Assembly: GCA_008632985.1 (NCBI GenBank)
Contig: QPGO01000053.1
Span: forward strand, 248,001 to 312,000
Length of the DNA: 64,000 nucleotides
Source of the DNA: Psammoneis japonica
Lineage: Eukaryota
Reading direction: 5' to 3'
Shown: positions 13,017 through 55,590 of the stretch, one piece after another
Numbering within the stretch: the first letter of the stretch is position 1
Layout: each line of letters begins with the position of its first letter
Position numbers and translations under genes: made by a program
Notes under the pieces: model-generated
Told to the model about the DNA's origin: nothing
Databases searched by the model: none
Seen by the model: the letters and a program-made list of their open reading frames with translations, nothing else

Positions 13017-13292
13017 TGACAGGATTTGAACAGGATTTGGATGCGCGCGAAGCATCGCGCGCTGTTTAGTTTACCGCGCACAGTTTTGTGTGCTTTAGTT
13101 CCGCGCGTTCACGCGCGATGTAGTTTGCTTTCGAGCCACAAGGCTCACAAGAACAATGACAGTAGCCCGATTGTGCCGACTTGCACGTCTTTCGGCTCCT
13201 GCAACGGTCTCTGAGCGGAGACTCATCTGCCATTTAGACAGCAGTAAGGAGTTATTGTTTGAATTCTTGCCATTTGCCTTCAGTTTCTATCA
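13017..13292 (+). repeat. 5' LTR of the young Copia
   Basis: Matches 19847-20122 with 7 substitutions. Confidence 0.97.
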
Positions 13293-14231: not shown

Positions 14232-17200
14232 ATGGTTCTCACTCGTCAGCAACAAACCGATGGTTTTGAGCACGTTGTTGGAGCCGTGCTTGCCCAAGGT
14301 GCTGGGAGTCCTCTTCGTTTGGCTTTGGCCCAAGACGGCACGGACTCGCATCAGGAACTGTTCACGTTCACACCGTCCCAAATCGACTCGCTTGAGTGCG
14401 ACAACGGCACTGATGTAATCCCTTTGCCCCGTGGTTACAAGAACATGTTAGCAGCACTGGTCAGCCTGTACATTGTCAAAGCACACAAAGGTCTTGACGT
14501 TGCCAACGACTCCTCTTTGTTCACGCATGACGAGTTCCTTGCCTGCCGCCTCAGCCCGGACTGCATGTCCTCTCTGTCCATCGGCAGCTCACCCCTTGCA
14601 CCTCCACATGTCACCAACCCGACCAAGGCATGCGACCCGGTGCGAGACTTCAAGCAAGGCATCAAGCGTGATCCCACCGCTTTCACAGCTCTCAAATCCG
14701 ACAAGCAGTGGCACACTTGGCACACCTCACTTGTGGCACAAGCCCGTGCCCAAGACGTCAAGTGCATTCTAGACTCGTCGTACAAACCGACCAGCCCCGA
14801 AGACAAACTGCTCTTTGCTGAACAGCAAAAGTGCATGTTCGCCGTCTTTGAATGCATCCTTCTCACCGACAAGGGCAAGGCTCTCATTCGCGAAAATGTG
14901 GGGTCCTCTGACGCACAGACCGTCTGCCGCTCCTTGTCTGAGTGCGCGCTTGCCTCCACCCATGCATCTGTCGAGTCCTCCACCCTGCTCACGCACCTCA
15001 CCACCGCACGTCTTGGTGATGGCACTTGGAAAGGTCCGACCCACGGGTTCATCCTTCATTGGCAAGATCAGTTGCGCAAGTGCGAGGCACTCATCCCCGC
15101 CAGCGACCACTTCTCTGAAGGACAGAAGCGCGTCATGCTCGAGAATGCCGTGCACCCTGTCGAGGAACTCCGTGCTGTCAAGAACCAAGCTGATCAGCAT
15201 CGACGCAGAGTGGCAAGAGCCTCACATCGATCAATGCTGTGGCTTGCTCCTCTCCGCGGCAGCTCAGTACGACAGCACGTTTCAACCCAAGACGACACCT
15301 CGAGCTCCCCGACGCGCCACACACGCACACGACGTCTGCTCCGAGGAACCGTCCGACGATGTGTTCTACGACATTGACAGCGACGTTGACGTCCTTCAAG
15401 CCAATGCTGCCTGCGCCCGTGGTCCCAGCCTCACCGGTGTCCAATGGAGACGTCTCCCTCCCGACCACCAACGGCTCTGGGATTCGTTGCCCGATTCCTC
15501 CAAGGCGATCATCCTTGAGCACTCTCGTCCGCCTCCCCGCAACCCGCGAGCCAGTGACTGCCATGAGTCTGTTACGGCCAACCTTCACGACCAACACCTT
15601 GGGAGTGACGGTGATGTCAACTTGTCCAACACGACTCCTGCTGACTGTGGTGACTCCGCTGCACATGTGGACGCCATTTCGGATGATCCCATCCTGGCGC
15701 ACCTCACCAAGCGCAAGCCACTGCCACCCGGTGATCTGCAACGTCTGTTGTCTCCTAACCAAGCCCCCAATGCCAGTCGACCTTGGCCATCCGCCGCTTC
15801 CTCTACCCCGCCAGCTTCTGCAGATGACATGGAACTTAACGGCCGCACTTGCCGCCGCGTTGACAACCACAATGTCATTTGCTCTGCCTCTGCTCATCGC
15901 TCCACACGCACTGGCGCTCTAGTCGATCGTGGGGCCAACGGCGGCATTGCTGGTGACGACGTCCGCGTCATCGCACGCACCTCTCGCCAAGTCGACGTTC
16001 AGGGCATTGACGATCATCAATTGGTGGACATCCCCATTGTCACCGCTGGTGCCGTCATTGAGACCCAGCGTGGTCCCGTCATCGCCATCCTCCATCAGCA
16101 CGCATGCACGGGAAAGGGCAAGACCATCCATTCCTGCGGCCAGCTCGAATGGTGCAAACAGGATGTCAACGATCGCTCTGTCAAGGTGCCCAACGGCTTG
16201 CATCGCATTGCCACTCCTGATGGCTATGTCATCCCCATTGACATCAAGGCTGGCCTGCCTTGTGTTGCCATGCGACCTTACACTGACGCCGAATGGGACA
16301 CCCTGCCCCACGTCATCCTCACCGGTGATGACACATGGGACCCTTCCGTCCTCGATCACTCTGTCACTGACAATGACCAGTGGTACGACGCGATCTCTGA
16401 CCTGCAGGACGATCCCACTGCCAACCCATTTGACGAATGCGGCAACTGCCGTCACCGTGTCGTTGTCAACGAGACCATCTTGTCCGCTTCCTTGTCTGCC
16501 GATCACGCGTCCGCCCTCGATGATCACCTCATTCCGAACGACGACGTGTTCTACGAGTGTCATCTGCATGCGATTGACCCCAAGGGCGATGACGTTCCAC
16601 CTCCGGAGCGCACTGTACAGCCCAAGGACCCCCCCTTCGAGTCTCTTCGGCCTTGCTTTGGCTTCCTGCCTGCCGATGCGGTCCGTCGTACTTTTGACTG
16701 CACCACGCAGTGCGCCCGCATGCCCGCCGGCACACACCTTCGCAAGGCCTTCAAATCACCCAACCCCGCCCTTAATGTGCACCGTCGCAACGAGCCTGTC
16801 GCCACTGACACCGTTTGTGCCGACACCCCGGCCGTCGACTCTGGTTGCACCAGCGCCCAACTGTTTGTTGGCACCGAGTCTACCGTCACTGACGTCTACG
16901 GCACTGAGACGGACAAAGAGTTTGTCAACACACTCGAGGATCAGATCCGTGAACGTGGTGCCCCATCCAAACTCATTAGCGACCGTGCTCAAGTTGAGAT
17001 CAGCAACAAAGTGCTCGGGATCCTACGCGCCCTCTTCATCTCCAGCTGGCAAAGTGAGCCTCACCAGCAACACCAAAACTTTGCCGAGCGTCGACACCAG
17101 ACTGTGAAGCGCATGGCGAACACTGTCATGGACCGTTTTGGTTCGCCCGCCCACACATGGCTGCTGGCGCTCATGTGCGTGTGCTTCACACTCAACCATG

Positions 17201-19899
17201 CAGCGTCCCCACGTCTCCACTGGCGCACGCCCCTCGAGACTCTCACTGGATCCACCCCGGACATCAGCCCATTGCTTCGCTTTCACTGGTGGGAACCAGT
17301 GCACTTCCACCTCGATGACTCCAATTGGCCGTCCGAATCTCGTGAGTTGCGTGGACGCTTCGTTGGCATTGCTGAGCACGTCGGCCACCAGATGACCTTC
17401 AAGATTCTATCTGACGAGACTCAGAAGATCCTCTGCCGGTCCAACGTTCGCTCCGCCACCCCCGATCCTGCCGTTCGAAACCTGCGTCTTGATCCTCCTG
17501 ATGGGGAGCCACCTGAACCCATCATCAAATCTCGCCATGACGACAACCCCGTCGATTCTCCTGATGGGGAGATCAGGACACCCAAGATGCCAGTTTTCGA
17601 TCCGCAAGACATCATTGGACGTACCTTCCTCATGCAGCCACAAGAGGACGGACAACGCCACAGAGCTCGCATCGTCAAGGCCGTCGAAGACCACGAATGG
17701 AAAGTGAACGGCAATCCCGAGCTCACTAAGTTCGTCTGCTCTGTCAACAATGACGAATACGAGGAAGTCCTTGCCTGCAATGACATCATGAATCACATTG
17801 AGCAAGAAGACGAAGACACCACTGTTTGGAAATTTCGACGCATCGTGTCACACGAAGGCCCTCTGAAGCCTCACGACCCAACCTGGAAAGGCTCAAGCTA
17901 CAACATCATGCTTGAATGGGAAAGTGGGGAGATCACGTCCGAGCCTCTTGCCATCATCGCCAAGGACGACCCCGTCACCTGTGCCATCTATGCACGAGAG
18001 AACGGACTCCTCGACACGGATGGATGGAAGCGGTTCCGCACCATCGCGAGGCGCCAAAAGAAGCCATTTCGCATGGCCAACCAAGCCAAGCTTCGCTCCT
18101 TCCGCACTGCACCTCGCTACAAGCACGGATGCGAAGTTCCCCGGAACTACAAACACGCCATGTCACTGGACGAACGCAACGGCAACCGCAAGTGGGGAGA
18201 CGCAACTAATCTCGAGATGGACCAACTCGACGAATACGAAGTCTTCCATGACTGCGGGCCCTTCAAGTCTTCCACTCCTCCTGCGGGACACAAGAAGATC
18301 CGAGTGCACCTGGTGTACGACGTGAAACACGACGGTCGCCACAAGGCACGACTCGTAGCCGACGGGCACCTCACGGACGTACCTGTCGACAGTGTCTGCT
18401 CCGGAGTAGTCTCCCTTCGTGGCCTTCGGCTGATGATTTTCCTGGCCGAACTCAACGAGCTGGAGACATGGGCCACCGACATTGGCAATGCCCACCTTGA
18501 AGCCACCACCAAGGAGAAGCTTTACATTGTAGCTGGACCCGAATTTGGCAAACTCGAAGGACACATCCTTGTCATCCACAAGGCACTGTATGGACTCCGC
18601 AGCTCCGGTCTCCGCTGGCACGAGCGCTTCGCCGACTGCCTGCGAGCTGAAGGCTTCTTCCCCTGCCGCGCCGAACCCGACATTTGGATGCGCAGGAACG
18701 GCGACCACTGTGAATGCATTGCCGTTTATGTGGATGACCTCGCCATTGCCATGAAGGACCCTCAATCTTTCGTCGACACTCTCACGGAAAAGTGCAAGTT
18801 CAAGCTCAAGGGTGCGGGACCCATTGAGTTCCATCTGGGTTGCGACTTTTCCCGGGACCCCGACGGAACCTTGTGCCTGTCTCCGCGCAAGTACATCGAG
18901 CGCATGGTCGACAGCTGCGCCCGACTGTTTGGGGAGAAACCTGCCACCAACGCCCTGTCACCTCTAGAGAAGGGTGACCACCCCGAACTGGACACTTCCG
19001 AACTGCTGGGACCCGATGGCATTCACAAGTTCCAGTCTCTTGTTGGTTCACTCCAATGGGCAGTGTCCCTTGGTCGAATTGACATTACCACGGCCGTCAT
19101 GTCACTCTCTAGCTTCCGAGCTGCGCCCCGTCAAGGCCACTTGGATCGTGCCAAACGCGTCTGTGGGTGCCTCTCCAAGATGCGACACGGTGCTCTCCGC
19201 GTTCGCACGGAAGAGCCCGACCATTCGGATCTCCCTGCTCCGGCCTACGAATGGATGCATTCCGTGTACGGTGAAGCAGAAGAGATGATCCCGAAGGACG
19301 CTCCACCGCCCCTTGGCAAGTTCGTCACTGCCACCCACTACGTCGATGCAAACTTGTGCCATTGCATGCTCACCGGGCGCTCTGTCATGGGAATGCTCCA
19401 CTTCCTCAACAAATTCCCGGCTGATTGGTTCTCCAAGAAACAAGCCACCGTGGAGACTGCAACCTGCGGATCTGAATTTGTTGCCGCAAGGAATTGTGTT
19501 GAGCAGATTATCGACCTGCGCATCACCCTGCGCTGCCTTGGCGTCCCGATCCGTAATGTCAGTTACATGTTCGGTGACAACAAGTCGGTTGTAGACAGTG
19601 CCACCATCCCGCACTCCAAGTTACACAAGCGACACACCGCACTGTCGTTCCACCGTGTGCGTGAGGCAATTGCCTCTGGTTGCCTTGAGTTCCACTTCAT
19701 CGAAGGCTCCCGCAACCCTGCTGACATTCTCAGCAAGCATTGGGGTTACTCCCAAATCTGGGACCTTCTCCGACCCCTCATGTTCTGGAACTTCATTCCA
19801 TCCGAAGTCGAATCTGTTTCTGTGGCTCCTCAAGCAAACTGGGGAGTGACAGGATTTGAACAGGATTTGGATGCGCGCGAAGCATCGCGCGCTGTTTAG
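14232..19899 (+). pseudogene. Copia gag-pol polyprotein, frameshifted near 15200-15230 and hypermutated (Tyr->Cys/His)
   Basis: Gag DFKQGIKRDP; protease LVDRGANGG; integrase VATDTV..LISDRA..QNFAERR; RT KARLVADG, KALYGL, YVDD; RNase H HYVDA, GSEF, FGDN, NPADILSK. Confidence 0.93.
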
Positions 19900-20122
19900 T
19901 TTACCGCGCACAGTTTTGTGTGCTTTAGTTCCGCACGTTCACGCGCGATGTAGTTTGCTTTCGAGCCACAAGGCTCACAAGAATAACAACAGTAGCCCGA
20001 TTGTACCGACTTGCACGTCTTTCGGCTCCTGCAACGGTCTCTGAGCGGAGACTCATCTGCCATTTAGACAGCAGCAAGGAGTTGTTGTTTGAATTCTTGC
20101 CATTTGCCTTCAGTTTCTATCA
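19847..20122 (+). repeat. 3' LTR of the young Copia
   Basis: Follows the PPT; paired with 13017-13292. Confidence 0.97.
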
Positions 20123-20127
20123 ACAAA

Positions 20128-20151
20128 GAAGAAGAAGAAGAAGAAGAAGAA
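20128..20151 (+). repeat. (GAA)n microsatellite next to the insertion site
   Basis: About 8 GAA units directly after the TSD. Confidence 0.9.
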
Positions 20152-20949
20152 TGAGAGACCAGCTTCTGGCGGCAGTCTTGACAAAGTGAATTTTGCAGCA
20201 GCATGACAACACTGTGTGCCAGTGCAGCCGGCAAGCAGCACCAAGAGCTTGAGAGCACAGCTGCATTTGTTGTTGCAAGTTGCAGGCAGCTCCTTTTCAC
20301 GACACTCCTCAGCAGACATCAGCTGTAAAACATGCATGAAAACAGTGTCACACTGAGTTGGAAATGATTTTGAAAGCAACAAAACATCAAAATTCTAGCC
20401 AAAAAGTGCTGTTGTCCAAGCTTGCAGTGGCTTCTGAGGCAGGTGTTGGAAAAAGGTGGCTTTTGGTGCATCGGAGCAACAAGTTTTGAAGGGGCAAAAG
20501 AGGGGTGGGCAGCAGGAATCCTCACTGCAAAAAGAGCCAGTTTTCTAAAATGGTTGACTTGGGGTCATGTTTTGCACATCTGGCAAGATGGTGCAGCTTG
20601 AAAAGCTGCTCTTGGAGCACACAACAACATGCTGGGGGGCCATTCTTCTTCCAAGCAAAGACGTGATGTGTTTTGTGCAGGGGAAGAGCTGGTGTGGGCA
20701 CAAGTGAAAACAAACAGAAACTGACAGTGAGACAAAGGAGCACATGTGCAAAATGGAAAGAATGACTCTACACTGCATTGTGCTGCTGCTGTGCAAAAGG
20801 AACATCACACAGTTTTGTGGAACAATCAGAGGGTCCTCCATGGTGTTGGAAAGGGTTGATCTGGAGAAACATGTGGCGGGATTGTCGCGCGGAGTGCGCT
20901 TGGAGATGGAGAGAAAAAGGGCAGGCCAAAAGTGCAGACAGATGGTTGA

Positions 20950-21600
20950 GAGGAGGAGTTGGTGACAGTGGGATGGTGAAGAAGAAGAGCTTGGCATGTG
21001 GAAAGATGGTTGGAGAGAGCAAAGCCGAAGTTGAGGCTGAGGATTTGAGAGGCCCAGTCAGAGTTGAGGAGTTGCAGTGTGATGGGAGGAGCCAAAGCGG
21101 TCCAGTGAAAGTTGTTTCCAGGCCGCATTGGAGCAGGTGAGGAGGTCAGAAGGTGTGAGCAGTGAGTTGGTGAAAGTGGACAAGGGTGCTTGGCAGTTGG
21201 AAAGGGAGGGCGGGCTTGTCCAGGGCGGTTTTGGAGGAAGGGGGGTGGGATGGTGGAGGAGGATGTGGTGGAGATGCCGAAGAAAAAGAGACGTGGAAAT
21301 GACATCCGATTCTGCCAAGGCAGTCAAATGTAAAAGGAAGGAGAAAGAGCCCAGCTTGATTGACAGCGTCAATGATGTCGGGGCCATGGGTGGGTGGTGT
21401 GGAGCGTCCGAGAAGCTTGTCCCCCCATGTGCACACTGCTGAGGTGAGCCTTGTTTTTATGGGTTTTCAGGGACAGGCAAACCAGGTGCAGGAGGCGGCG
21501 GAGCTGGCGGTACAGTGACATCGATGACCAAGAATTGGTGGGTGGATGGGGCGTTTGGTGGTGTAGAACCAGGGATGAGTTGAACGGTGGGCTGGTCAGG
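20950..21600 (-). mobile_element. 3' fragment of a non-LTR retrotransposon with a restriction-like endonuclease (CRE/Ambal-like), degenerate
   Basis: Minus-strand fragments FLVIDVTVPP...KLLGRS..DIIDAVNQAGLFLLPFTFDCLGRIG...WASQILSLNFGFALSNHL resemble the PD-(D/E)xK RLE C-terminus. Frameshifted. Confidence 0.5.
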
Positions 21601-39579: not shown

Positions 39580-39789
39580 ATACCAGTACGAGTAGGTCTA
39601 GAAAACCACATCGGCATGCAATCTCAATCGGCATCATCGGCGGGCGGGCTGGAGGTGGTAGGGACGGACGGAAGTACAAAAATTGCGTAGAAAACCCTGT
39701 ACTGTACAGTACGTACAGACAGACCGCCACTCCGATTCTACCGTATTCTCGCGACATGGCAAAGAATTTGTTGCGCAGCAAGTCCCATG

Positions 39790-42700
39790 AGTTTTGCCAG
39801 CTGCATCAAAAGTGAGAAAAACAGAAAATGGTGAAATGCTTCAGCCAGATGACAAGGAGTTGACCAGCTGCTCTGCACCTGTGACTGACTTGGTGCCGCG
39901 CTGCAGAGGTGCCACACCCAGAGGAAAAAGCCAGGAGGAGGGCAGGGCAGCAGCGCTCAGTTTGTGTCGTGCTGTTGTCTCTGCTGCCATCACCAGTGTC
40001 AAGTGGTTGCTTCTGCTGATGCATGTGTTTTGTCTGAACACCATGAAAAACTTGGCTCCATCTCTGTGGCAAATGTTTGCAGGGGGGGGGGGCAAAAAAT
40101 GTGCACCAGGTTGCATTTTTTCAGTGGCGGTGTGCAGAAGACAAAGAGCCACAGGTGCTGCTGTGATGCATGTTTGAAGAGTGGGCTGCAAGAAGACTTT
40201 GGACTCGTCACATCACCTCCCAGAAGTCAATGGTGCAAGAAACATGCTGTTTCTTCCAGTCACTGTGAGAGGCTGGAAAAGGCTTTTTAATCACAGCACA
40301 GCACAAATCTGCTTTCTTTGCAAATTTGACCCATGCAGGAATGGGGCCCAAGTGCTTGAGCACAGAGCTCTGGTGTTGCACAAAATTGTGAGACTGTTTT
40401 GTGCAGAGCACATGTGCACATGATGGCAAGACATGCAGAGCCTGAGTTCTTGCTCAGAGCCAATCACACTTGGTGCTGCTGCACAGATCATCCCATGTGC
40501 AGTCTCTTCTCATGCAATGCGCGACACTTGCGAAATGGCCAGTCATGCCACAACTTGATTGCATGGAACTCCAGCAGCCTGTCACAGGTCTTGCACTGGG
40601 AGCTGCATTTTCCAACATGTGCTTCTGTGGGTCAGCATTGTGCTGCAGACAGCCCGCAGATGCAGGAAAGCAGCATCATTTGCAACTGCAGCATGGATGC
40701 CTGCTGCACTTGCTTGCCCCCATGACAAGGTTGGCCAAGTTGCAGACCCATTGCTGTGACCCATGCAGGAACAGGGTCTGAAAGCTTTAGCAGAGATTTC
40801 TGGTGTTGTGCAAAATCATGAGATGATTTTACACTGAGCACATGCACCCACGACAGCAAGACATGTGGAGCCTCCTGAGCCCTTGTGACGCGTTCCAGAC
40901 GCAGGTGGGAATCCGTGTGACATTGGGTCCGTAGAATTCTGCATGCGAGCTCCACAGTAAAATTGTCAGGTGATGAGAACATCAATGATCGCCAACAGAA
41001 AATGAGGCAATTTTGCGAACGGACAAACTCATCAAAACCCCTCATGATGCCCTCCTGACTGCCCCACACACTGTTGTTTGCTTTTGTGGAACACAAGGCT
41101 GCACCAGCGCTGGAACTGCAGCCTCAAATGGGCACCCAGCTTGCATCTCATGTGTTTCAAGAGACACCCACAATTTTGGTTGCCTGGCTTTTCAACTCTG
41201 TGTGTCATTCAATCATGGGCACTGCATTGCACCCACTTGCACTCCACCCAGATGAACATGCAACCATGATGTTGAGTGTGCTTGTTGTTGTTGGAGCATC
41301 TGGCTTGAGGGGCACTGCGTGTGATGTGGAAATAAAGTCATGTCTTTTGAGTCCCAATGTGGTGAGTTGATGACTGTTCTTTGGAGAGGATCTTCTCCAT
41401 CATCGATTGCAATCTCACCAACTTTTTTCATGCTTGCTCCATGGAGTGAATCATCCTTTTCATCAGGAGCAAAAAGTGGCATCTGTCAACACACAATGAT
41501 CTGTTTTTGGTGTGCACACAACATTTGACATTGAGGAAAACCACAGCCAACACAGCAACAGAGGGGGCAAGTGCGCTGAGCAGCACAGGAAGCCTGGCGG
41601 GATTCCCTTTTGGTGACATTGACTTGCCGGCTCAACACTCACTCCAAAGAGCCATTTGCACTTGTTGAGTGCATGCCAACTCATCAGAAGATCACAAGAT
41701 CATCAACACCTGTGCTGTGAGTGGCAGAGCACACAGAAGGCAACAAGCAAAAGACCATGACCAGCATGAGGGCCATGGTGGAAGAGGCAACAAGAAGCAT
41801 GCCAAGAACAAGAAGTCCTTCTCCAACATGAGATGAAGTTTCACCCTTCATCCCTGAATGACAACACGCACAATGCAACACACAAAGTCATCAAGAGGAA
41901 GATCTGCAGACACATGCAGAAGGAATTTGAACAGAGCAAACAAATGACAAGGTCCCTGGAAAACATGAAGAAGTGCCTTGACTTTGAGGCCAAGAAGCCT
42001 GTGCCGAGGCTGCAAAAAGCAGCTGCACCCATGGAGGGGTCAACCCCCACACAATTCTGACATGACAAGCAGTTGGAATGTGAGTGCCATGCCAAATGCA
42101 AGGAGAGCTGCCATGCAAACTGAAGCTGTTTGATGAGAATGAATCAAAGGCATTCACTGTGGTTGTGGATGACCACTGTGTGAACCATGTGAGGAACAGG
42201 GTCCCAGGCAACCCAAGCCATGACAGCATTGGGGATGATCCAATCAAGTTGTTGAGACTTGTCCATTCCCTCACATTCAACTCAATCAGAGGTTGATGTT
42301 TGTTCCGTGTGCATGCATTGACAAAGTCCCTGAAGAACACACCATGTGCAAACAAGAGATGGTGTCAAAGACCACTCTTTTGTGGACAGCAATGTGAGCA
42401 TCAACACCACCAGATCAACAAGATCAACCTGTTCAACCTGGAGGAGGGGAGCTGTGTGGCATGGGTTGCAACTGGTCAATGAATGACCAGAGACAAGCAT
42501 GAGCCAGACCAACATGAGCATTGAGACTGATGAAATCATTTTCAACAATGGCTCTGCCCTTGGTGTGGCAGCAAGCTGGAGGTTGGTGTGCAATGCAGAA
42601 CGGGCAAAGATTGACTTGCACATGAACACAAGAGTGGACACCCTGGACAAGGATTGTGCCATGCCAGGATTGGGTGACATGAACTTGGGATCAAAACATG

Positions 42701-45700
42701 CAACAGCAAATGTCCCAAGCCTGAAGGATGCAAAGGCCAAGCATCATGTGATGCACAACAACCAAGTGGTGGATGAGTTCTGACTGTTGGACAAGAAGAG
42801 TGGTGAGGAAGTTGCAGCATTTAAAGACAATGACATTGGACTGTGCACATTTGCACCAAACCAGAAGTTCTTTGATCATGTTGAGGGTCTGCAAAGAGCA
42901 GAGTCATGAGTTGGCATGCTGCCCAAGAAGAATGCCAAGAAAACAAACAACAAGCAAAGGAGGGCATTGGGAGCTGTTGCCCTGACCATGAGGCACAATG
43001 CCATGGGCCACTCCAAAAGGGAGACAGCAAACACTGAGCTGGCACTTGGACTGCATTGCAAGGCTGGAACACCCAGTGTCAGAGATTTCAAGTGATTCCC
43101 GCATTCCATTCAGGTGGTGAAGAATCTGTTCATCATGCCAGAGAATGTGGGCAGGATGGTGGACATTTGGGGGGCACCTGTTTGCACACTGAAAGACGAG
43201 ACCAAAAGTGCCCACCATCCTCATGCAAGGAATGACAAGATTGTGATGCCACCTGAGATCTGTGACAAACAAAGGAAAGGCATTGCCCTGTGCATCAACA
43301 TTGTAGAAGTGTGCAGTGTTGAGCCTCTGCGTGCTGTTGAAAAGACAATCAAGTGTTGATTGAGCATGAAGCTGAAATCCTAGTGTGGATGTGCACAAGT
43401 CATTGGACATGGGGCACTGCGGCAACACAACAAGGTCATGTTCAAAATTCACTTCATTGGAGGCAACCCTGAGTTTGAGGCCATGCTTGCTGACAAAGTG
43501 ACCAGTGGCACAATGAACCTCAAACTGTTGCCAGTGAACACTGGCAATCACATGCCAGAGGTTGAGTGCAGTGTCAAAGCCATCAAAGAAAGGACTCAGG
43601 CTGCTGTGCATCACCTGCCTTTCAAGGCCACACCCAGACTTGTGTGTGAGCACACAGCTGCCAAGAACACAGCCATGGTGAATGCACATCCACAGAAGGA
43701 ATGCATCTCCAACACCTGCAGCCCACACACCATCATGCAACACCAAGTTTCTGACTGTGCCAGACACTTTGAATTTGCTTTTGGGGAATTTGTTTTCTCA
43801 AGTTGAGAACAACCCTGCCAACACAATGGAAATGTGTGGGGCATTGACACTGCACATCTGCACCCACATTTTGACTCTCTAAAGGGAGGAAACCATGCCA
43901 TGAACCTGCACACTGGGAAACTCCTCAACCTTTGCAAATGCACCTCCACACCCCCAACTGACATGCACATCAAAGAAGTCAAAAAGATGGCACAGGCCTG
44001 GGGTGTCAAAGATTTTAAATTCACAGGAAAATGTGGAGGCAATCTTTGCAACATCTGACTGGACTGCAGGAGTGGAACATGACGACAATGACTGCAACAA
44101 CTGTGACAAAAATGATGACAAAGAAAGCAAAGATGGCATTGATGAAGACTGCAATGAGATGGACTCAGAGGGGAACACAAAGAAGCCAATGACACCCCAG
44201 CTGGCAAGAGGTCCAGTCCCAACTGGCATGATGAAGTGACAGAGTCTGACAATGAGAATCCTGACTGTCACAAAGAAGATGATCATGAGGACATTGATGA
44301 CACACAAGACAACAATGGGTCCAGCAAAGACAACAAGGGAGCCAAAGAAAGAACAGAGGAAGAAGCCAGAGCTGCAACTGGCAGGACCACAAGGTCCAGG
44401 AAGTCCTTTGCACAAAGGCATGAGAAGCATGAGAAAATGGTGCAGTTCACAGGAGTGACCAGCTCTAAAGAAGAGCAGGAAGAGATTGCCAAACTCAAAC
44501 ACTGCCATCACTTGTGAACAAACATGAGTCCAAACCCAGAGGATGACATTGAATGCAACTCCAAATTGGCAATGGCATTGGCACAGTTCATGTGCAAAAC
44601 AAATTGCAGACTCCATTTTGCCAGAAAGGGTTTTTCGTTTGCCCAACAGTGCCCACTGCACAAAGGCCCAAAAGCATTTGGACAGAAGGGGCATGATGCC
44701 TCCAAGAAGGAGACAGGACAACTCCATGACAGAGTGTGCTTTGCACTGACATCTTTCAAAGACATGACTCTCAGTGAGAGGGCCAACCTTGTGGAGAAAC
44801 CAGATGGTTGGATTGAAGGATGAATGGTCTGCAATGGGAAATGACCAACCAGAGATTGGCAAGACAAAGACAAGTCAGCAACCCAACAGCATTGCCAGAA
44901 GGAATGTCCATGACTGCCATTGTTGATGCTGATGAAGGATGTGACATCATGTGTGCTGATGTTCCCAACACATTCATTCAAGAAACTCAGGTTCCAAAAG
45001 TTGAAGAGAAAGAAAGGATCAGCTCATGATGAAGATTGCAGGATTGCCAGTCAACATGCTCGTCAGCATCAATCCTGACCATCATGGACTGCATGTGGTC
45101 CTGGAAAAGGGCAAGAGAGTCCTTTGCGCACAAGTGATTAGAGCAGCACATGGCATGTTGTTGGTTGCAGTGCAGCTGTGGCACAAGAAGTTCCTCAAGG
45201 ACTTGGAAATGACTGGGGTTGTGTCCAACACATGTGACCCATGCACTGCCATTTGCACCATCAATGGCAAACAGCGTGCAGCAAGATTTCACATGGACAA
45301 CCTGTTGTTGAGCCACTGGAACCTAAAAGTGAACAAGAAATTTTTAAGATGGCTCAACAGAATGCATGGGAGCCATGGAAAGGACATTGCAACTCAAGGC
45401 AAGAAGCATGACTGTCTGGGAATGATTCTGGACTTCAGCAAGAGGGGCAAGGTGTTGGCAGACATGACCAAGTTCACCGGCAAGATGGTTGATGATTTTC
45501 CCAAGGCTGTTGAGAGCATGGATGCTGCCATGGCACCAGATGGAGAAAACAGCACATTGATGATGTGCACGCCACGATTGCTGCGCTGTGCACAAGAGTC
45601 AGAGAACCTGCCAACAAGGACCAAGGGAAGCTGATCCATTGTTTGAGACACATGGGCCAGACTGAACACAAGATGAAGTCACAACATTGAGCACAAAAGA

Positions 45701-48700
45701 CCTCCAATTTGTCAAACAGCATGTGGATGCATCTGAGAGCCATGCAAGATCAGCAATGTGATGGAGCAATCCAAAAAATGTCAAAGCAACACAAGCTGGA
45801 CACCCAAAGCAGCACAAAAGCTGAGCCAGCAGGAGTTGATGATGCAATGACCATGACATCATGGACCAAGCTCTTCATGGAGCACCAAGGCCATCCAATC
45901 AACAAGAACATCCTGTGTCAAGACAACAAGAGTGCCATCTTGCTCAAGACCAATGAACACAGAAGCATGGGGAAGCACTCCAGAGCTCTCAACATTTGGT
46001 GCTTCTTCTTCATGTCCAATCAGATTGAGAAGGGTGAGCTGAGGCTGCAATGCTGAACTGCCAATGACATGTTGAGAGCCTTCATGACCAAGCTGTTGCA
46101 AGACAAGAAGTTTTGAAAATTCAAACAAGCCATCACAGGATGTCAATGGTGAGCATGACAGGCTGAGTTCCTGTCCGGTGATGTCAGATGAGAATTCTGA
46201 TGTGCACGGGTGAAAGATCCCTGATGCACGTGGGTGAGAGATCCCCATGAGACCAAGACCTTTAAGGAGCCAAGAGACAAATGGCTCACAGCACTTCAAT
46301 GGGATGTTGAAAGTTCACAACATTTGTTGAGAACAAGCCAGGATGAGCAATGGAGCAATTGTGTGTGATGCAAAGACACAGCACTGGCCAAAAGATCATT
46401 GTTGGATGGACACCAAAGCAATCATCATGTGGCCATTGAACAGCATCAGGCCAATGAGATGTCCTTGCTCAGAAAGGATGGAAAAATGGGCCAGTCAGAA
46501 AGCAGATCTCATTGAACAATTGGCCAGGAAAGCACTGGCAAAAGCCTCAGATGTGGGTCATTCTGCAGAGATCAATTGCTGGAAATGGAGAAGGCAGCAG
46601 ATGCAAGAGATGCCCTGGACTGCATCCATCTGGTGGTCAAAGAAACAGAAGACAAGAATGCAGTCATTCATCTGATGTGGGAAGAATTAAAGAATGCACT
46701 GCAACAACCAAAATGGGTTGAACTGTGCAAGAGAAGAACTGAGTTCATGGAGAACCCACACACACACACATGAAGTTGCAGGTTGGTCTCCCAAGATTGA
46801 TGAACACATGTCCACTGCCACACCAATGATTTCCACACATGATGACTTTGAAGATCTTGAAGAAGACATCAAGGGAAAAGTTGGGGCCTTGCACCTGACT
46901 GAGGAACACTGGAAGATTGTCAGAGGCAATGCCTGCAGGCAACAAGTCCCATTCTGTGCCAGATGGGGAGTGATGTGCAATTTTAATGAGGCATTTGACC
47001 AAATGACAGTGGCAGGCTCAGAGGGTGACAACTTGCAGTTGTCCCCAAGTGGGTGAGATGTGGGCTGTCTGCAAGAACAGTTGAGCATGAGTTGTCCTGA
47101 AAAATTGAAGTCCCTTGATGAAGAGAATCACAAATGAAGCTGACAGGACCCAAGGCTGCTGCTGACTGGTGAGGGATCCAACTGGAGTGATTTTTGATGT
47201 CAAAAAATTGGTGCTGTTTTTCCACCATGACGTTGAGGTTGTGAAGCTGGGTTTGATGTGGACATGCCACAGAATGGAGTTCTTAGAATTGCACCCAGAG
47301 AGATGAGACAACTGCTTGCTTGTCTGTCAGACAACATTGTGAAAGAGATTGTTTGTTGTGCCCACATTGGGTGTTTCTCATGGAAGCCATGGAAAAGGAC
47401 AACCCACAAGTTTCATCACATGGTGAATTTCTCAGACAAAGGACATCATGCCTCTCTGCAACATGGCAACCAAGATGTCAAAAATGTTGATGAGAAAAAT
47501 GGTGTCCCAGGAGAGGAAATTGTCAAGCACCTTGTCCCGAATTCTTGGAACACCGGTGAGAGCAGCAGGAGTGTGTTGGAGCATCTGGCTTGAGGGGCAC
47601 CACATGTGACCCAGAAATGAAGTTGCATCTTTTGAGTCCTGATGTGGTGAGTTGATGACTGTTCTTCAGAGGATCTTCTCCATCATCAATTGCAATCATC
47701 TCACCAACTTTTTATGCTCACTCTTTGGAGTGAATCACACGGTTCATCAAGAATGACAAGTGGCATCTGACAACACCCAACAATTTGTTTGGTGTGCACA
47801 TCATGACATTTGACATTGAGGCAAGCCACAGCTGACACAGCAACCAGGGCAAGTGTGACAAGCAGCACAAGAAGCCTGGTGGGATTCCCTTTTGGTGACA
47901 TTGACTTGCTGGTTCAACAGTTGTGCAATTTGCACATTGTGCAGTCACACCAGACCAGCACCACAGTGAAAACAGTTGGGTGTTTTTGTTCAAGCAGGAG
48001 CTGCAGCAGCAGGAGTGGCAGGGTGGGTGATGGCAATTTGCTCCCACGCTGGAAGCAAGCAGGAGGAGCTCCCCAGATTGCAGGCAAGAAGCATGGCAGC
48101 AACAACTGCAGCAGGCAGCCACTGTGTCAGACATGGCACAACCACAACACCATCTTGAGCTGAGAGAAATCACATGATGTGATGTGCCACACACTGCAAA
48201 GCAAACACACAAAAGCTGCACCATGTGGTGTGTGTCAGGGACTGTGAAAAAACCACAAAAAAACAATGCAGCTGCACACTGCACACCACTTCTTCTTCTT
48301 GTGTTGAACTCTTTGTCTCAAAGTGCTTTGCAGCAACACATGGAGTTGCCAGATGGGGCCCAAATGCTGGCACAACTCTTGAGAGTGAGCAGCACCAGCA
48401 CAGCAACTCTGTCTCATGAAAGATTTAACAAAGATGAACAAACCAGCAGAGGTGATCCAGTGATGTGGAAACTTCAACAGGAGGGCAATGCATGCAAAGC
48501 CAATGTGTGCAATTTTCAGCATCCTTCTGCCTTTTGCAAGGGAGAAAATGCAACAGGAGCATGTGCCACATCTGATGGAAACACTTGACACATGCATGCA
48601 TCATGATGATTTTTGGCATCACCTGTCCTTGCTGCATGTGCTCAACACATCTGTTGTGCAGTTGGGCAGCATGGATGAACTTGGCATCATCTTGATTGTG

Positions 48701-50490
48701 GGCTGCTGTGCTGTTTCCAGGCACCTTTGTCTGTCTGTGTTGCCATTTTGATGTGAGCACAGCTCCAGTTGGAGTGGTGGGTGAGCTGTCGCTTGTTGTG
48801 GATTTGGTTTTCATGCTTTTGTTGGGTGCTGAGCTTTTAGATGCACAGCTGGCCAGCTGCTGCTCCACCATGTGCTGCACTGCAGCCAAAGCCTTGTGGT
48901 TTTTGAGTGCAGAACAAACAACACACACAAGGGGCAAATTTCCTTTTTTGTGCACCCCTTGTGCTGCTAAAACCCACATGCTTTTTGTGTGTGCAGCAAA
49001 CAGTGCAATTGTTGCAAACTCTGACAACCTTCTTTGACCAAAAAAAGGTTGTTGTTTTGTTTTTAAAAATCACACCTGTGTGCTCACCCCAAAGTGTTGG
49101 GCAATTATTCTCAACAATGGGGCAGTGGGGGGATGCAGAGCACAGCTCAAGAATGTGATCCAGCACAAAAAAGCCAACCTCCGCCAGTGCTCTGGATGAT
49201 TTGGTCAGCCAGATGGTGTCCCTGGGAGCATCCACACCATCTCATCCCAACTGGCAATGGTGTTGGAGCCCAGCCACCAGCCACTTGTGCCTGTCAGCTG
49301 AGTTTCAAAAAATGTTTGAAGTGCCAGCCCATTTTTTGTGGCAAGAAGCAGCAACACCCAATGTGCACTCAACAAATCCAGCAAATTCCACACATCTTTG
49401 CCAGCCATCAATGCTGTCAATGCACCAACTGTGTTGAAGTTCATGTGGACTGTGCCAGAGTCACAAAAGCTGCTGAGTCTGCATGCAAGGCTTGGAGAGA
49501 GTTCATTTTTGGCATGCAAGCACAAACCCATGTGGGGCTCAGCATGCTCCTCAGCTCCATGCAGAACAGTGGCACAAGGATCAGAAAGATCCATCACTGT
49601 TTCAACCAACCTGGAGAACATGGAGACATGAAACAACATGACAGTGGTGCAAGAGCACTCCTCCAGCCACAGGTTGCAGCACGAACCAGCTTTTCCATTT
49701 TGTTTTGAAAGAAGACTCTTGCACAGCATGCACAGCCAGGAGGATCAACACAAAAAAAGCACAACACACACAAGTGACAGCTGGCTTCCAGTGAGCACAA
49801 GTGCACTTGTGCAATTCGTTGCTGTTGTTGTTTGCAGTCAATGACGACTTTGTCATTTGCAATCCAGAGAACTCCACAATCAAGAGCTCTCAGCAGCAAA
49901 AGTGAGCCAAGGCAAACGCTCTGGAGTGACAGCAGCACATTGCAGCAGCAGCACTTTTGACAAGTTGAGATCTTTTAACTGTGCCCAGTTGGATCTGTGC
50001 TGAGCAATGTTTCTGAAAAGCAACGCAGGAATCACAAGTGCGAATGTTCCAACACAACATTCTTCCTCTTTTTAATCTCCCAGAAATTCGTGAGCACATT
50101 GAAGCCCATCTGCCCCCAGTGAGAGACACATGCACCAATTGAGTGTTTCTTGCAGCATTGGAGAAAAGACAACTGGTGAAACCACAGTGTGCCAAGGACA
50201 GTGAGTGCCTCACCGAACCAAACTTTGCAGCTGCTGTGTCTTGTGCGCATGTCGTGGGGGGTGGGTGGGTGGGGGGGTTCATTTTTGCTGCTGACAATTC
50301 CATTCTTTGTTTAGGCCTGTTCAGTCTCCGAGCATGTGAGCTCGTCAAATGATTCGCGGGAGATAGATGCCCCTGCTTGTGCTGATAAATGAGTTTTGCA
50401 TGGTTGGTCCCATGTGCCGGTATGATGGGAAACAGCATCACACATGAAAATTGTTTCCGTTGACAGCACAAGCAAGAGACACGCCTGCCA
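39790..50490. mobile_element. Degenerate TE block, TpA/CpG-depleted, containing the nested old Copia
   Basis: Abrupt loss of TA and CG with TG/CA excess; ~120-bp internal direct repeat at ~40328-40447 and ~40759-40880. Confidence 0.65.
41289..47919 (+). mobile_element. Full-length but heavily decayed Ty1/Copia LTR retrotransposon (CoDi-II-like)
   Basis: LTRs 41289-41637 and 47574-47919 (TGTTG...CAACA); TSD GTTGT at 41284-41288 and 47920-47924; AGCAGGAGTG before the 3' LTR. Remnants: DPIKLLRLVHSL (gag), HMPEVECSVKAIKER (IN), ADVPNTFIQ and LWHKKF (RT), SSTKAE and ILCQDNKSAI (RNase H). Confidence 0.9.
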
Positions 50491-50985
50491 GGCAAAATAC
50501 CGGTAGAAAAATGTCAAAACCAACCATTATAATGTACATAAAATTCGAATTTCGATTAACATCTATGCGCACTAAGGGTAGGATGATGAAACTGACTATG
50601 TAGAAGTTTTCGCACGAATGAGTCATGATACACACAGCACATCACTATTACCTTTATATCATAATTTTGAGTTTACAGGACGTATGCAAAATACATAAAA
50701 TGATGTTCGTGAACAAACTTTATATATGTTGTTTTGATCGTGTGGTTGCCTCACAGAATTTTTTAACAACATTCAGATTTGAAAAAAATTGGTTGATGGC
50801 GTGGCCACACCGCAACTTGAAACTGCACAAGAAGAAACGCCATGTCGTTAGCCCTACTGTAGGGTTGCACTCTACAATACTGCTACACCTCATCTGTGGG
50901 ACGGTCCGGTATCAGTTATACTACTCTGCTCATCGTATCTAATTAGAAAATACACGTTTCCCTTTTCTCTGTAAAGCTCTTCATT

Positions 50986-52315
50986 ATGTCAAAGTTGTAC
51001 CAGGATCCGTTTGGCCCACCGTGGCGATTGAACTGGCTTCGCATGATTCTTACGTGGGAAGCGAGCATCTTTCAGTTTTTCTGGGTCGAGTGGTTCCTCG
51101 CGCTCGTTGTCTGTACTATAGTTATTTTGACAATTTACTATGCTCGAGAAGACACCAACCAAGATGAACTAGACACAGATTTTCTGTCGCTCGTGGATAC
51201 TGTCAGTTTCATCAACACACGCTTTCAAGCTGCTGTTGGTTTGATGCTCGGTTTTTACACTTCCACTATTTACGGGCGATGGTGGAGCGTTCGCTCTACA
51301 GAAGGAAGCTGTATGGGCGGAGTCTACACCCTCTCTGTGAAGGTTGCAACGTTGATTCGAGATAGCGAGACATCGCAGCAGATCCTTGGTCAAAACAGAG
51401 TAGACGGAGACGATTCCACAACTGAGTATAGTTCCGACGCCGAAGAGATCGTACCCGCTGTGCAAGATGTACGCATGCAGCTCGTTCGTTGGGTTAACTT
51501 GGCACATGCCTTACGCGTGGGAGAAGTGTTTGAGAAGGTGCCAAACGAGTTCTCTTCGTTGGAAGCGCTGATGGACTGCGGACTCTGCACAAAATCCGAG
51601 TATGAGTATTTGAATGAGACTAGCCGCTCGCGCTTTGTTGTTCCTCTATTGTGGTTCCAAGATCTTGTGATGCAGCTCACCGAGAAGGAGCTTTTCGGTT
51701 GCAATGAGTCGAGGATCAGACTCTTTATTGAGCCAATCTGCGCAATGCGTGGGTCGTTGGGCGGACTCGGAACTCCAAAAAGTGTGCCGGTACCTCTCTC
51801 TTATCGCCAGTTGGTGAATGTGACGGTGCGCTCTTACATGGCCATTTCCCTCATCGCTTCAGCCCTCATAGATATCCGCAAAGAAGAGAATTTAGGAGGG
51901 TTGACTAAAGGAGGTACGTTTCCTCATGGCGAGATCCCCTCCAGTGCTGTTTGTGTATCACACCGACTAAAATACGCTCTTCCCTTGTACAGCGTTTTGG
52001 TCAATTCTCTCCTTTGCCTTTGAGTATTTTTTGTTCGTTGGATGGTTGACAAGCGCGGATGCCTTGGCCAATCCCTACAGGTACTGGGCGGACGCATTTG
52101 AATGGGAGTCCTATGTCAGTTCGACTCTTCTAAACACGATGGACATATCAACTGGATATAGAAATGGTTCCAGTTCCCTCTCCGTGGTTAACGCAAGCTG
52201 TAAAGCTGTGCGCACAAAAATGATGAAACGATCTTACTCATCATTGGATACTGCGCTGAAGCATAAGAAGCATACAAGAAAATCTATGATTGTTGGCCAC
52301 TATGCTAATGAGTGA
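50986..52315 (+). CDS. Bestrophin-like channel, copy 1 (intron 51914-51992)
   Basis: LTWEASIF, LGFYTSTIYGRWW, LVRWVNL, VPVPLSYRQLV and FVGWL..ADALANP. Confidence 0.82.
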
Positions 52316-52499
52316 CTTGGCTGCAACAGACAAGAGAAATCAGCTGGGAACATATCATAAGGGTATGGTGTACCGTAGATATCTTTTAATTTAGAACAGT
52401 TGCAACATCTCACGCATGCATAATAGTGTCTATTACAAGCTACATTTCTTATCATCTTAAAGCGGCACTCGTGACCAAGGACTGAACAAGACCGCCCAT

Positions 52500-55400
52500 T
52501 TGATGATGCAAGTGAAAGTGTCATTCGTGCAGCACCTTGGTGCAATGATGTGGTGCACTTGCAGGCAGCGCTTGTTCTTGGCCTCATGGCAGCTTTGGCA
52601 GATTGCAGCCAGATGGTGTTGTCCTCAAATTGTTTCATGTAACAAGCCACCAGTGCATTCTGAGAGCCAGCTTTCAAAATCTTGGAGTGCACAATGTGTT
52701 TCAATGTTTGTGTGCAAGCCCACTGTGTTGAATGCAAAGGCAGTTGTGCCTCAGGCAGCAGCCATGTCACAGCTTGCAGGTTGGCAAGGGACTTGGCATG
52801 AATCTCTGTCTGTGATGAACAAGTGGGAGAGCACAAGCAGCTTTTTTTATTTGCTTGTCTTGCCAGATCAAGAACATTCTGCTGAGACTGCCAATGCAGC
52901 TGATGGGGAATCTTGTTCTTCAGGGGCAGCAATGAACTTTTGTGGTGATGCAGAGTTCTTGGATGTGGCAGGACAGGATGAAATCTTCTGTCACAAGGCA
53001 GGTGTGTGTGTGCTCTGCAGCAGCCAAGAAATCTTCTGCTTCCTTCAATGCTTTCACAAGCTGTCTTTTTGTGTCCTTAGCAAGGAGTTGGTCTGTTGCC
53101 AGTTGTGGAGTCTTCAGGTGTTGGCAGTTCTGCTCATTTAACAGGCAGCCTCTGTCAAGGCCAGAGTCTGCTTTTTTGAGGCTTGTGGGAAGTGGTGCTG
53201 TGCTGGCACAAGAGTTTCCAGCATCTTGAGCCAGCCACTGCTTGGCAGCTCACTTGTTCAATGCAATTTGCAAAGTCCACCATTTGTTGTTGCCACAGGA
53301 CCAACCAAATGCCTGGCTGCAAGCAAGCTCTTGGAGGGTGGTGCCTTGACAAAGCTCAACAGCAGCAAGGTGACAGAAATGAGCCAAAACTGTGAAGAGG
53401 GCATGGTGGCTTTGGTGAGCCAGTGTCTTCCCACAGAGGGCAGAACCACTTTAGAAACATTGCTTGAGGTGATGCTTTGTGAGAAAGCCACCCAGCAGCA
53501 TTGAAGCTCATGAGCATGTGGCACACATTGTCAAGCTTGGCAAAGCCATGCCATTTGAGCCTCTTTCCCTCCAGAGGTGGGGATGGTGAAGATGAGCTGA
53601 TTGTCCCTCCAGAAGATGGCAAACTGGTTGACCTGCTTGAGTGGCACACAGCACCAAATGCTCAGCAATGGCACATGGTCCTTCAGGACTTCAATCTGCC
53701 AGCTGGCCAGATCCAAAATTTTCACATCATCACCTCAAAGGAGCACACATCCTCATTGAACAGCAAGTCAATGCAAGCTGCTGGTGCTGGCACCTTTTTG
53801 AAAGGGTCACCAGCAAGAAAACCAGCAAGAAAAGATGCCACAAGAAAAACGCGAATTCCTGAGGTTTGGCCCAAAACCAGGACAAAGATCCTGTGTGTTC
53901 CATGGTTTTCATTGCTGCAATGTGACCAAGGAATGTCATGCACCAAAGCACCAATGACCAACAACTCAAAAATTTGCATGACCCAGCAAAGTGATTTCAG
54001 CTGTCTGCTGAAAATTGTGTGGTGCACACCCAAAAAATCCAACATTTGCTTCACAAGTTTTTTTCACCATTTTGCTCAGAATCTTGGACAACAATGAGAA
54101 AATTGCAGAGGTTTCCATGCATTTTTGGTGCAAAGAAAAAGTCAGTTTTGGCAACATGCTGACTGACCACCAACCAAAACAACTTCCGACCTCCCTCCTG
54201 GGGGGCTGTGCATGTTGCATTCAAGCCTTTGTGAGTGGTTCCAACTCAAGAGAACCTGGCTGTGCTGTTGCATGAAGCAGTGCAATGTTGACAGAAAAAA
54301 TGATCATCACATTGGTTGCCATGATTTTGGTGTTGTCAGAGCTGACCGTGAAAGTCCACACAGCACGCAGCAGGGTGCAATCACACAAGTCCACTTGGAC
54401 AACTTATTTAGAAGGAATGCTCATCAATCATCTCATTGCCAGTGTTGGGCTTTTGCAAACAGGCCTCTTGTCCAGTTTCTGTCAGCACTGACAAGCCCAA
54501 TTTGTGAAACTGGTGTCTGGAGTTGATCTTGTTCTTGAATCGCAAGTGAACACACAGCCCAAGACTCAGCCAATGTGAGCAACTCATCAGAGTGTCTGAT
54601 GAACAAATCTTCATTGAAAATCAACTAATGCAAGATCATCCATGTGCAAGACTTTCTCAACATGATGGCACCCCAGGTTAAAACAAAGATCCCATCCTTG
54701 GAGTCTTCAGCTCCTGGAGCCACAAAATCCTGGCCTCAGCGATTGTTGGCTTCAGCAACAAGCACTCAGGTGCAAAACTTGCTGCAATGTGGCCTGCCAT
54801 GACTTTGACTCTGTTGCCCCATTTGCAATCTTCCAGTGCTTCAAACAAATTGGCTTTTGTGTTGATCACTGTGATGCACACCTGAGTCATCATGTCCCCT
54901 GGCCCAGTCAACCCAAACTCTGTTGGCCGAGTGCCCTTTCTTGTTCCAGCCCTTGCCCAGCCACCAGAGCTGCTGGACTTGGCTGCAGGTCACCCAATGC
55001 TAAAACACAACCTTTTGAATTCCCAGAGCCTTGGCTTGTTTGCACCCAAAATCACCTGGTGTTGGGCGGCCATCTCATGAGCCAGAGTTTTGACAACAAA
55101 ATGAGCTGCACGTGGTCAGCGGGGTGGGAGAGGCACTGCAAAACCAACACCCATGCTGGAGCCTGATGGGGAGCAAATGGCTGGTTTCACTCCAACTGGA
55201 TGATCTGATGAACCCAGCAATGACCCACCTGACTTGCCCTGGGGCCCCGCACGCAACATCCAGGCACACAACAGCAAAGAGGGGCGGGGTCTGTGGGGCA
55301 AGGCCAGCGCTGAAGAACATCCCTCTTGAGCCTGACTTCTTCCTTTTCAGGCACACAAGAACATGATTTGTGCCCTGGCAACAGAGGAAGCACATGTGTG

Positions 55401-55590
55401 ATCCAACAAGAGCCAACAAAGAATGAGATGATGGCAGTTGAGCCTTGCATCACATTGCACTGCAAGAGAGCCGCACGTGGTTGCAGGCTTTTTGAACCCC
55501 ACACTGGACCTCAGACAGTCTTCTGGTGGGCGATCACACTTCTCTTCCAAAGATCAGAAATCACACCTGCGGTCAGGCTGTAAACAAACC
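52500..55590. mobile_element. Unclassified TpA/CpG-depleted insertion between the two bestrophin duplicates
   Basis: Same compositional signature as the other TE blocks; sits at the duplication junction; no recognisable domains. Confidence 0.55.

Follow-up and report, generated by a model that had tools for sequence, protein, structure and literature searches.

What removes the dinucleotide TpA (TA) from parts of a diatom genome, and what decides which TA stay? The question is raised by a 64,000-nt stretch of Psammoneis japonica DNA (assembly GCA_008632985.1, contig QPGO01000053.1, positions 248,001 to 312,000; referred to as the window), in which four sharp-edged blocks (10271-13044, 20070-21199, 39776-50309 and 52495-55570) show observed/expected (o/e) ratios of 0.01-0.1 for TpA and 0.03-0.3 for CpG. 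In these blocks the ratios of TpG and CpA are near 2 and the G+C content is unaltered, while the Pfam-named host genes are located outside of them. For a CCT-gamma protein the best named relatives are from diatoms, in line with a diatom host. The blocks appear to be transposon relics stripped of TpA and CpG. As described below, TA is changed to TG or CA after insertion and on both strands, and the change follows a target code in which TAY is fast and TYTARA is spared.

A previous sequence-only reading, concerned with positions 39790-55590, had described the residual TA as nearly all preceded by T or followed by A. This was found for 34 of the 37 TA left in the depleted parts of that range. For the four blocks together the fraction is 41/47, compared to 575/1460 in undepleted DNA of the window (Fisher p = 4e-11) and to 0.52 expected from a first-order Markov model (p = 4e-7); TG and CA in the same blocks are without such a bias (1866/4103). 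All ten motifs cited in support were found 0-2 nt from the places given, but three of them (10381, 12070 and 12577) are located outside 39790-55590. Within this range 50310-52494 is not depleted, where a bestrophin gene copy has a TA o/e of about 0.5-0.6. The depleted blocks and the transposon copy enclosed by two of them are the following:

39776..50309, no strand: TpA- and CpG-depleted block of old repeat and transposon DNA (two-state segmentation, o/e per kb)
52495..55570, no strand: block depleted of TpA and CpG, with a bestrophin gene copy on either side (segmentation)
10271..13016, no strand: depleted block left of the young Copia, holding the three outlying examples (5 TA in 10271-13044)
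13017..20122, plus strand: young Copia (long terminal repeats, LTRs, at 13017-13292 and 19847-20122; ACAAA target duplication; RVT_2 open reading frame 14773-19899)
20123..21199, no strand: depleted block right of the young Copia (segmentation 20070-21199, 5 TA)

Survival was quantified over the 675 TA of 229.5 kb of old depleted DNA, which came partly from the window and partly from other contigs, the tiles being picked by TA and CG o/e only. It was not uniform over the NTAN tetranucleotides. Relative to background, survival was graded from TTAA (0.48) over CTAA/TTAG (0.26), CTAG (0.09), GTAA/TTAC (0.09) and ATAA/TTAT (0.05) down to CTAC (0.03), ATAG (0.018), GTAC (0.015), ATAC (0.001) and ATAT (0), while CpG survival in old depleted DNA spans just 0.06-0.18. 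This gradation, together with the half-site weights given below, confirms that a context preference exists. TA survival in old blocks is roughly additive over both strands. Among the survivors in 39790-55590, 27/37 are YTAR (background 257/1456), and TCTAGA, with neither a 5' T nor a 3' A, is among the most spared hexamers. The rule is that YTAR survives. A VTAB target, which had been suggested, has the wrong shape: a 5' T is neutral on the edited strand and a 3' G protects like a 3' A. The "TTA" and "TAA" of the sequence-only reading express a single rule, read once on each strand: TTA owes its sparing only to the TAA opposite it, and what counts is a purine directly 3' of the A.

Newly made TA were ruled out as the main source of survivors, given that ancestral TTTAG stays TA in 57, 48 and 59 of 61 3' LTRs. 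TTTAAA was found at twice its background prediction in old blocks (50 vs 24), and some creation of TA or a mismatch of the background remains for this hexamer. An artefact of CpG decay or base composition was ruled out as well: TA is down to 1-5 per kb, the loss of TA from young and middle-aged copies leaves their CpG intact, and in other hosts CpG is lost but TA is not.

The direction of the change was followed in the young Copia family, an internal 22-mer of which has 224 exact matches in the 91-Mb assembly to which the window belongs (G000, where the window is part of C51). A first set comprised the 38 best-matching copies (L046-L083) plus the window copy; a held-out set comprised 40 further copies from the pattern list (L298-L337), not picked by identity, which share sites with the first set. 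The window copy has lost 53% of its TA-derived sites and 2.6% of its CpG sites. In copies 97-98% alike, 22-80% and 1.4-7.4% were lost, respectively. Sister LTRs of a retroelement are identical at integration. In 35 LTR pairs, 33 of them with identical 5-nt target duplications, 237 differences of TA against TG or CA were found, together with 56 of TG against CA, 44 of CG against TG or CA and 31 others; 26 held-out pairs gave 131 TA-single, 85 TG/CA and 100 CpG differences. The change of TA to TG or CA is made in chromosomal DNA, subsequent to insertion, and affects both strands. Per half-site, i.e. one strand of the palindromic TA, TA>TG amounts to 0.276, compared to 0.0025 for AA (AA>AG 46/18439), 0.0023 for CA, 0.0029 for GA and 0.018 for CpG. 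This corresponds to about 110 times other A>G and, after saturation correction, about 22 times CpG; AA, which the sequence-only reading had taken to be untargeted, is not above CA or GA. States other than TA, TG or CA were rare at TA-derived sites (15/5673). The strand term was 1.04-1.08 for the sense strand and the nonsynonymous term 1.09, by which transcribed-strand bias (1.07) and codon selection were ruled out. CA>TA (32/30522) was like other CH, and no C>T excess outside CpG was found. The loss of TA appears confined to foreign or mobile DNA, with Copia elements depleted and Pfam-named genes spared.

Within the element, the 5' LTR is spared for TA (33 vs 204) and for CpG (8 vs 29), as also in the held-out copies (18 vs 113 and 28 vs 72). 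There is thus a promoter-side protection from both losses, which moreover covary over copies (rho 0.57, n = 39). The shared sparing of the 5' LTR suggests that TA and CpG loss both track silent chromatin. In the window (13017-14100) and in both sets of copies, most TA are retained in the 5' LTR and over the initial 400 nt of the leader (0.71, compared to about 0.1-0.5 deeper). At least 13 TA are retained in the 5' LTR of 18/35 copies, while L057 shows the reverse.

Survival alone cannot show which strand's neighbour counts, but the outcome (TG or CA) can, and a half-site model was therefore used. This likelihood model, fitted to 5850 observations at 168 sites, contained a load per copy and LTR pairs, and changes inherited between copies were absorbed by local haplotype groups. 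Left out of the fits were high-scoring segment pairs below 88-95% identity, columns with too few copies and one-copy haplotype groups; the protected first 850 nt of the internal region were left out of the rate fits. On the edited strand (C = 1, 95% site bootstrap), the +1 weights were 0.35 for A (0.22-0.48), 0.34 for G (0.23-0.47) and 1.15 for T, with a G to A ratio of 1.03 (0.65-1.55). The weight of A at +2 was 0.43; at -1 the weights were 2.0 (A), 1.02 (G) and 0.97 (T; 0.69-1.46), and at -2 they were 1.64 (A) and 0.74 (T). TAY is fast, TAR is about three times slower and TAAA is slowest, whereas a 5' T has no effect on the edited strand (0.97) and marks the slow site on the other one. The held-out copies gave 0.33 (+1 A), 0.40 (+1 G) and 0.94 (-1 T). 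Protection by A-tracts, an alternative offered by the sequence-only reading, is real but of second order: the TAAA interaction was 0.25 (0.12-0.57), and T had a weight of 0.57 at -3 and of 0.68 at -2. Neither a TTTA interaction (0.75; 0.25-1.38) nor AT richness over a wider range (0.94) reached significance. CpG density was not linked to TA loss (rho about -0.02), CpG distance showed a weak positive link (rho 0.20, p = 0.02), and no spatial autocorrelation was seen in the residual rates.

The code was recovered outside the young family. In a second family, in which one nearly unmutated copy was compared to three related and non-independent copies, TA>TG was found at 67/275 half-sites with +1 A (0.24) and 65/240 with G (0.27), compared to 181/298 with C (0.61) and 142/267 with T (0.53), and the direction of the edit was as predicted in 244/330. 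Furthermore, the young-family fit forecasts old-block survival over 105 hexamers (rho -0.82; 31 of 136 were left out, having CG or two TA inside or fewer than 100 sites), with survival ranging from 0.31 in the slowest to 0.002 in the fastest fitted class.

Edits are coupled over very short distances only. TATA is changed to TGTG or CACA 242 times and to TGCA or CATG 88 times, and the same-direction odds ratio exceeds 1 in 9/9 site pairs at 2 nt, although five of these pairs belong to a single TA run and overlap. On the edited strand, an A at +1 was also turned into G as a bystander (e.g. TAA>TGG) in 23/539 vs 5/1910 cases, and in 30/850 vs 13/1941 in the held-out copies, which alone gave an excess at +2 (31/1257 vs 16/2487). 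Bystanders seen only between LTRs, and hence strictly post-insertion, amounted to 11/666 vs 4/2682 at -2, +1 and +2 together. No excess of transversions and deletions was detected beside edited sites, and kataegis-like runs were ruled out, none having been seen in the direction tests. Same-strand co-edits reach about 2 nt.

The restriction to A>G, the preference for TAY and the short same-strand co-edits match TadA-derived editors, and we lean towards an adenine deaminase of the ADAT/TadA type, working on the DNA of silenced repeats, as the agent, a candidate enzyme class only. Once a transposon has inserted, its TA turn into TG or CA, whichever strand is hit, 5'-TAY being the fastest context and 5'-TARA the slowest. 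Having two half-sites, a TA survives only if both are slow (YTAR, best TYTARA), which leaves the TTA and TAA contexts. According to the proposal, the A rather than the T would be the modified base, and its deamination would yield hypoxanthine, which is then read as G; the enzyme would be recruited by silencing marks and would act where the duplex is opened over a small patch. TadA-derived base editors are reported to have their highest efficiency at TAY (PMC10879117), and amphioxus ADAT2 (BjADAT2) is reported to deaminate A in DNA (PMC10354150). An ADAT2-like gene of G000 (C26) encodes Asn at the matching place, and two A_deamin loci are present (C40 and C79).

Several observations weigh against this proposal. 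The Asn of ADAT2 is widespread in eukaryotes, in which DNA editing is sporadic (PMC10354150), and a natural Tad2/Tad3 editor of fungal mRNA favours A or G at +1, the opposite flank (PMC11156358). The TadA-like gene of G000 has an N-terminal extension and keeps the RNA-type Asp. Deaminase searches of G000 yielded just a housekeeping-like set without expansion, and no enzyme was singled out. Laboratory TadA edits CA too, while the selectivity for TA over CA is here more than 100-fold and private non-TA A>G changes have no CA preference (0.0018, 0.0018 and 0.0019). With a crude stem score, no hairpin effect was found (1.16, 0.92-1.62), and the flank model explains the site-to-site variation only in part (rho 0.46). 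The direction of edits at sites at least 3 nt apart is uncorrelated (z at most 1.3; at most 1.5 beyond 5 nt), which argues against long single-stranded tracts. Part of the bystander signal is inherited: with private variants only, the excess shrinks to 8/1219 vs 2/1627 at +1 (p = 0.02) and 10/1568 vs 2/1670 at -2 (p = 0.02), i.e. 3- to 5-fold. The -2 bystander is weak in the held-out copies (p = 0.06) and absent in LTR pairs (0/237), and the bystander test in the second family was marginal (p = 0.07).

Part of the same evidence could be accounted for by a TpA-specific excision enzyme nicking repeat DNA, with a Y-family polymerase (Pol iota/eta-like) refilling 1-3 nt and placing G opposite T. 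The strictly post-insertion bystanders sit 3' of the edit (+1, 6/253; +2, 5/176; -2, 0/237), as a patch growing in the 3' direction would give. Five IMS-family (Y-family polymerase) genes are found in G000, one of them with a Pol eta/Rev1 HhH motif, and Pol eta, iota and zeta make A:T and tandem mutations in somatic hypermutation (PMC6423074). We nevertheless regard this scheme as unlikely, as AA (WA) changes are not in excess, some same-strand co-edits lie 5' of the edited A, and transversions and indels are no more frequent by edited sites (25/13125 on the same strand, 25/13125 on the opposite strand) than by kept ones (10/6422). In addition, we know of no TpA-specific adenine glycosylase. 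The marked base might instead be the thymine (5'-RTA fast), oxidised or otherwise modified T pairing with G or being repaired to C. A>G on one strand and T>C on its partner are inseparable by sequence, and the weights read equally well as a purine before T. This is rather improbable, however: co-edits of one strand at neighbouring non-TA positions would require several modified T, and a search of G000 for TET/JBP gave no candidates, an absence that is not proven in an incomplete genome.

The covariation of TA and CpG loss and the sparing of the 5' LTR by both would also be expected if TA loss were a by-product of long-patch mismatch repair of deaminated methyl-CpG with gap filling by Pol eta. 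This is very improbable in view of the untouched AA, the lack of strand coordination beyond 2 nt and of a tie to local CpG density (rho about -0.02), and of metagenome relatives such as L167, L168, L193 and L181, in which CpG o/e is 0.16-0.31 and TA o/e nevertheless exceeds 0.6. RNA editing by ADAR or ADAT, or reverse-transcriptase error, prior to integration and followed by selection on active masters can be given hardly any credence. Some changes are indeed inherited between copies and A_deamin loci exist, but sister LTRs differ at TA, by which this explanation is already largely refuted; strand bias (1.07) and codon effect (1.09) are lacking, and ADAR favours G at +1 (PMC11156358), a slow context here.

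Two further features of the window are the following:

41289..47919, plus strand: decayed Copia-type LTR retrotransposon (repeat pairs at a spacing of about 6285; tblastn)
50947..52023, plus strand: bestrophin gene copy, undepleted, an internal control (Pfam Bestrophin, E = 5e-29; TA o/e 0.64 in 51001-52000)

The decayed Copia lies in the block 39776-50309, for which segmentation gave 39776-40887 and 41025-50309 (together 25 TA and 54 CG; TA o/e per kb 0.01-0.08). Its LTR parts were aligned at 41289-41637 and 47574-47919 (82% alike, the true ends not being fixed), and remnants of pol are found at 42853-46140. In a tblastn alignment with a nearly unmutated relative (G000 C160), none of 28 aligned Tyr is kept, 20 of them being now His or Cys, while 8/11 Trp and 28/34 Phe are kept. 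The decay of Tyr to His or Cys is the protein-level trace of TAY>CAY/TGY. A Copia copy in the same contig (L230, C160:165293-170679) has lost next to no TA (o/e 0.57) and has a frame of 1140 aa. Three of its relatives, 90-93% alike, have lost 78-90% of its TA sites, i.e. some copies escape. A short repeat at 40886-41021 is less depleted than the surrounding block and has many copies elsewhere (depth spike, blastn); it is perhaps a young non-autonomous element or an LTR fragment.

The block 52495-55570 contains 10 TA and 20 CG in 3076 nt. With blastn among the loci searched it gave no match. It is flanked by tandem bestrophin copies (50947-52400 and 55861-57284; 91-94% alike, spacing about 4885). 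These copies are themselves undepleted, so duplication alone did not set off TA loss here. Contigs of run X1, possibly from the source sample and then not independent of the assembly, match the block over eight long pieces, each of which differs from it by 0-4 other letters, which confirms the block and rules out assembly error as the cause of depletion. They have one extra T at 54403 and read TG for the TA at 54626. Most of the differences to the assembly between 42003 and 54627 are C>T changes at CpG, the others being one TA>TG and one exchange of CA and TG. They may be haplotype differences and a sign of continuing decay.

Elsewhere in G000, several C5-DNA-methyltransferase gene copies are located in TA-depleted DNA (L295-L297, C301 and C297; TA o/e 0.07-0.10, CG about 0.7). 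Some of them contain stops, intact relatives are found at C10 and C59, and PF00145 has 27 matches in all. They are possibly mobile or duplicated genes struck by the TA-loss process. Among the best 80 of 149 metagenome relatives of the Copia element, a selection biased to intact genes, TA o/e was below 0.25 in one and below 0.35 in four; not every host of this Copia group therefore shows the process. Four metagenome contigs (L186, L172, L176 and L195) have a TA o/e of 0.13-0.33 and a CG o/e of 0.74-0.80, resembling an early stage of what is seen here. Survivors lean to slow contexts in L172 (p = 0.015), but not clearly so in L186 (p = 0.06), L195 (p = 0.10) or L176 (p = 0.24).

In the published literature, with subscription papers and bioRxiv supplements outside the scope, TpA loss of this kind was not found for diatoms, and for any organism only in a preprint on the rhizarian Bigelowiella natans (bioRxiv 10.64898/2026.01.13.699255, Mettrop et al.). 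The substitution class itself is already described there; new here are the replicated, strand-resolved target code and the 2-nt co-edit window. The code (a favoured 3' pyrimidine, a neutral 5' T, untouched AA, co-edits that stay within 2 nt and no bias between strands) eliminates, in their known forms, models based on Pol eta, on ADAR or on a RIP-like process (RIP, repeat-induced point mutation), and the expectation that the pattern would serve as a mechanistic fingerprint was borne out. Natural deaminases of genomic adenine are barely described. Any candidate enzyme would have to return this code in vitro, which makes the enzyme search testable, and scoring the mutations listed for B. natans with it would show whether both algae share one system. 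In practical terms, LTR-based dating and transposon homology searches are distorted in such genomes, while Tyr-to-His/Cys decay is a marker of affected genes.

Among known systems, RIP (RID/DNMT4, ascomycetes) is likewise a repeat-directed transition hypermutation of both strands that kills transposons, and relatives of DNMT4 are encoded by diatoms (PMC9998398). RIP, however, is C>T and makes TpA, whereas the diatom process removes TpA and CA>TA is not raised. For Phaeodactylum, a mutation accumulation study names CG, CC and TG as mutagenic rather than TA (PMC6604790). Of the three context preferences put forward for comparison by the sequence-only reading, only that of TadA-derived editors agrees (TAY). 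WA hypermutation by Pol eta in antibody genes (PMC6423074) shares the favoured A>G, the TA hotspot and tandem changes, but AA is here at the background of CA and GA, and there is no long-patch strand coordination. ADAR acts on RNA, on one strand and favours +1 G, in contrast to the post-insertion change of both strands with a slow +1 G. In fungal Tad2-Tad3-Ame1 mRNA editing (PMC11156358) an ADAT is also turned to new substrates, with U/T at -1, although the substrate is RNA and hairpin loops and A/G at +1 are preferred. The sites reported for BjADAT2 are TCG and GAA (PMC10354150), unlike the TA here. TadA-derived adenine base editors resemble the diatom process in making A>G only and in preferring TAY (PMC10879117). 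Of the features typical of TadA/ADAT enzymes, TAY over TAR and same-strand bystanders without other error types were found, while a preference for hairpin loops or long single-stranded DNA was not seen (hairpin term 1.16; no coordination beyond 2 nt). Bystander edits of adenine base editors fall within a short window, like the co-edits described here. Compared to these editors and to amphioxus ADAT2/3, the need for a 5' T is far stricter, hairpins are not preferred and C>T is not in excess outside CpG.

The closest parallel is B. natans, in which integrated DNA of nucleocytoplasmic large DNA viruses and virophages undergoes TpA-only A:T>G:C changes. Their rate is about 6e-7 per site per generation, and the de novo rate is about 1000-fold above the genome average and varies between lines (bioRxiv 10.64898/2026.01.13.699255). 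The main text of that preprint contains no flank rule, no co-edit window and no mention of diatoms or CpG; its Table S2 could show contexts. B. natans is a rhizarian, whereas here the host is a diatom (stramenopile), the targets are LTR retrotransposons and repeats, CpG decay is joined and erasure is near-complete. It is conceivable, if somewhat doubtful, that diatoms possess a "reverse RIP": a transposon-killing natural deaminase that silent chromatin would guide to duplex genomic adenines at 5'-TAY and that would edit patches of 1-3 nt, i.e. a natural double-strand adenine editor with RATAYC best and TYTARA spared. Bigelowiella would then possess this defence too, which would make it ancient in the lineage of stramenopiles, alveolates and Rhizaria. 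Both systems share TpA>TpG/CpA on both strands of chromosomal DNA, confinement to foreign or mobile DNA, and long-term TpA loss with a gain of CpA and TpG, and ADAT2 has been proposed as the agent in B. natans (bioRxiv 10.64898/2026.01.13.699255).

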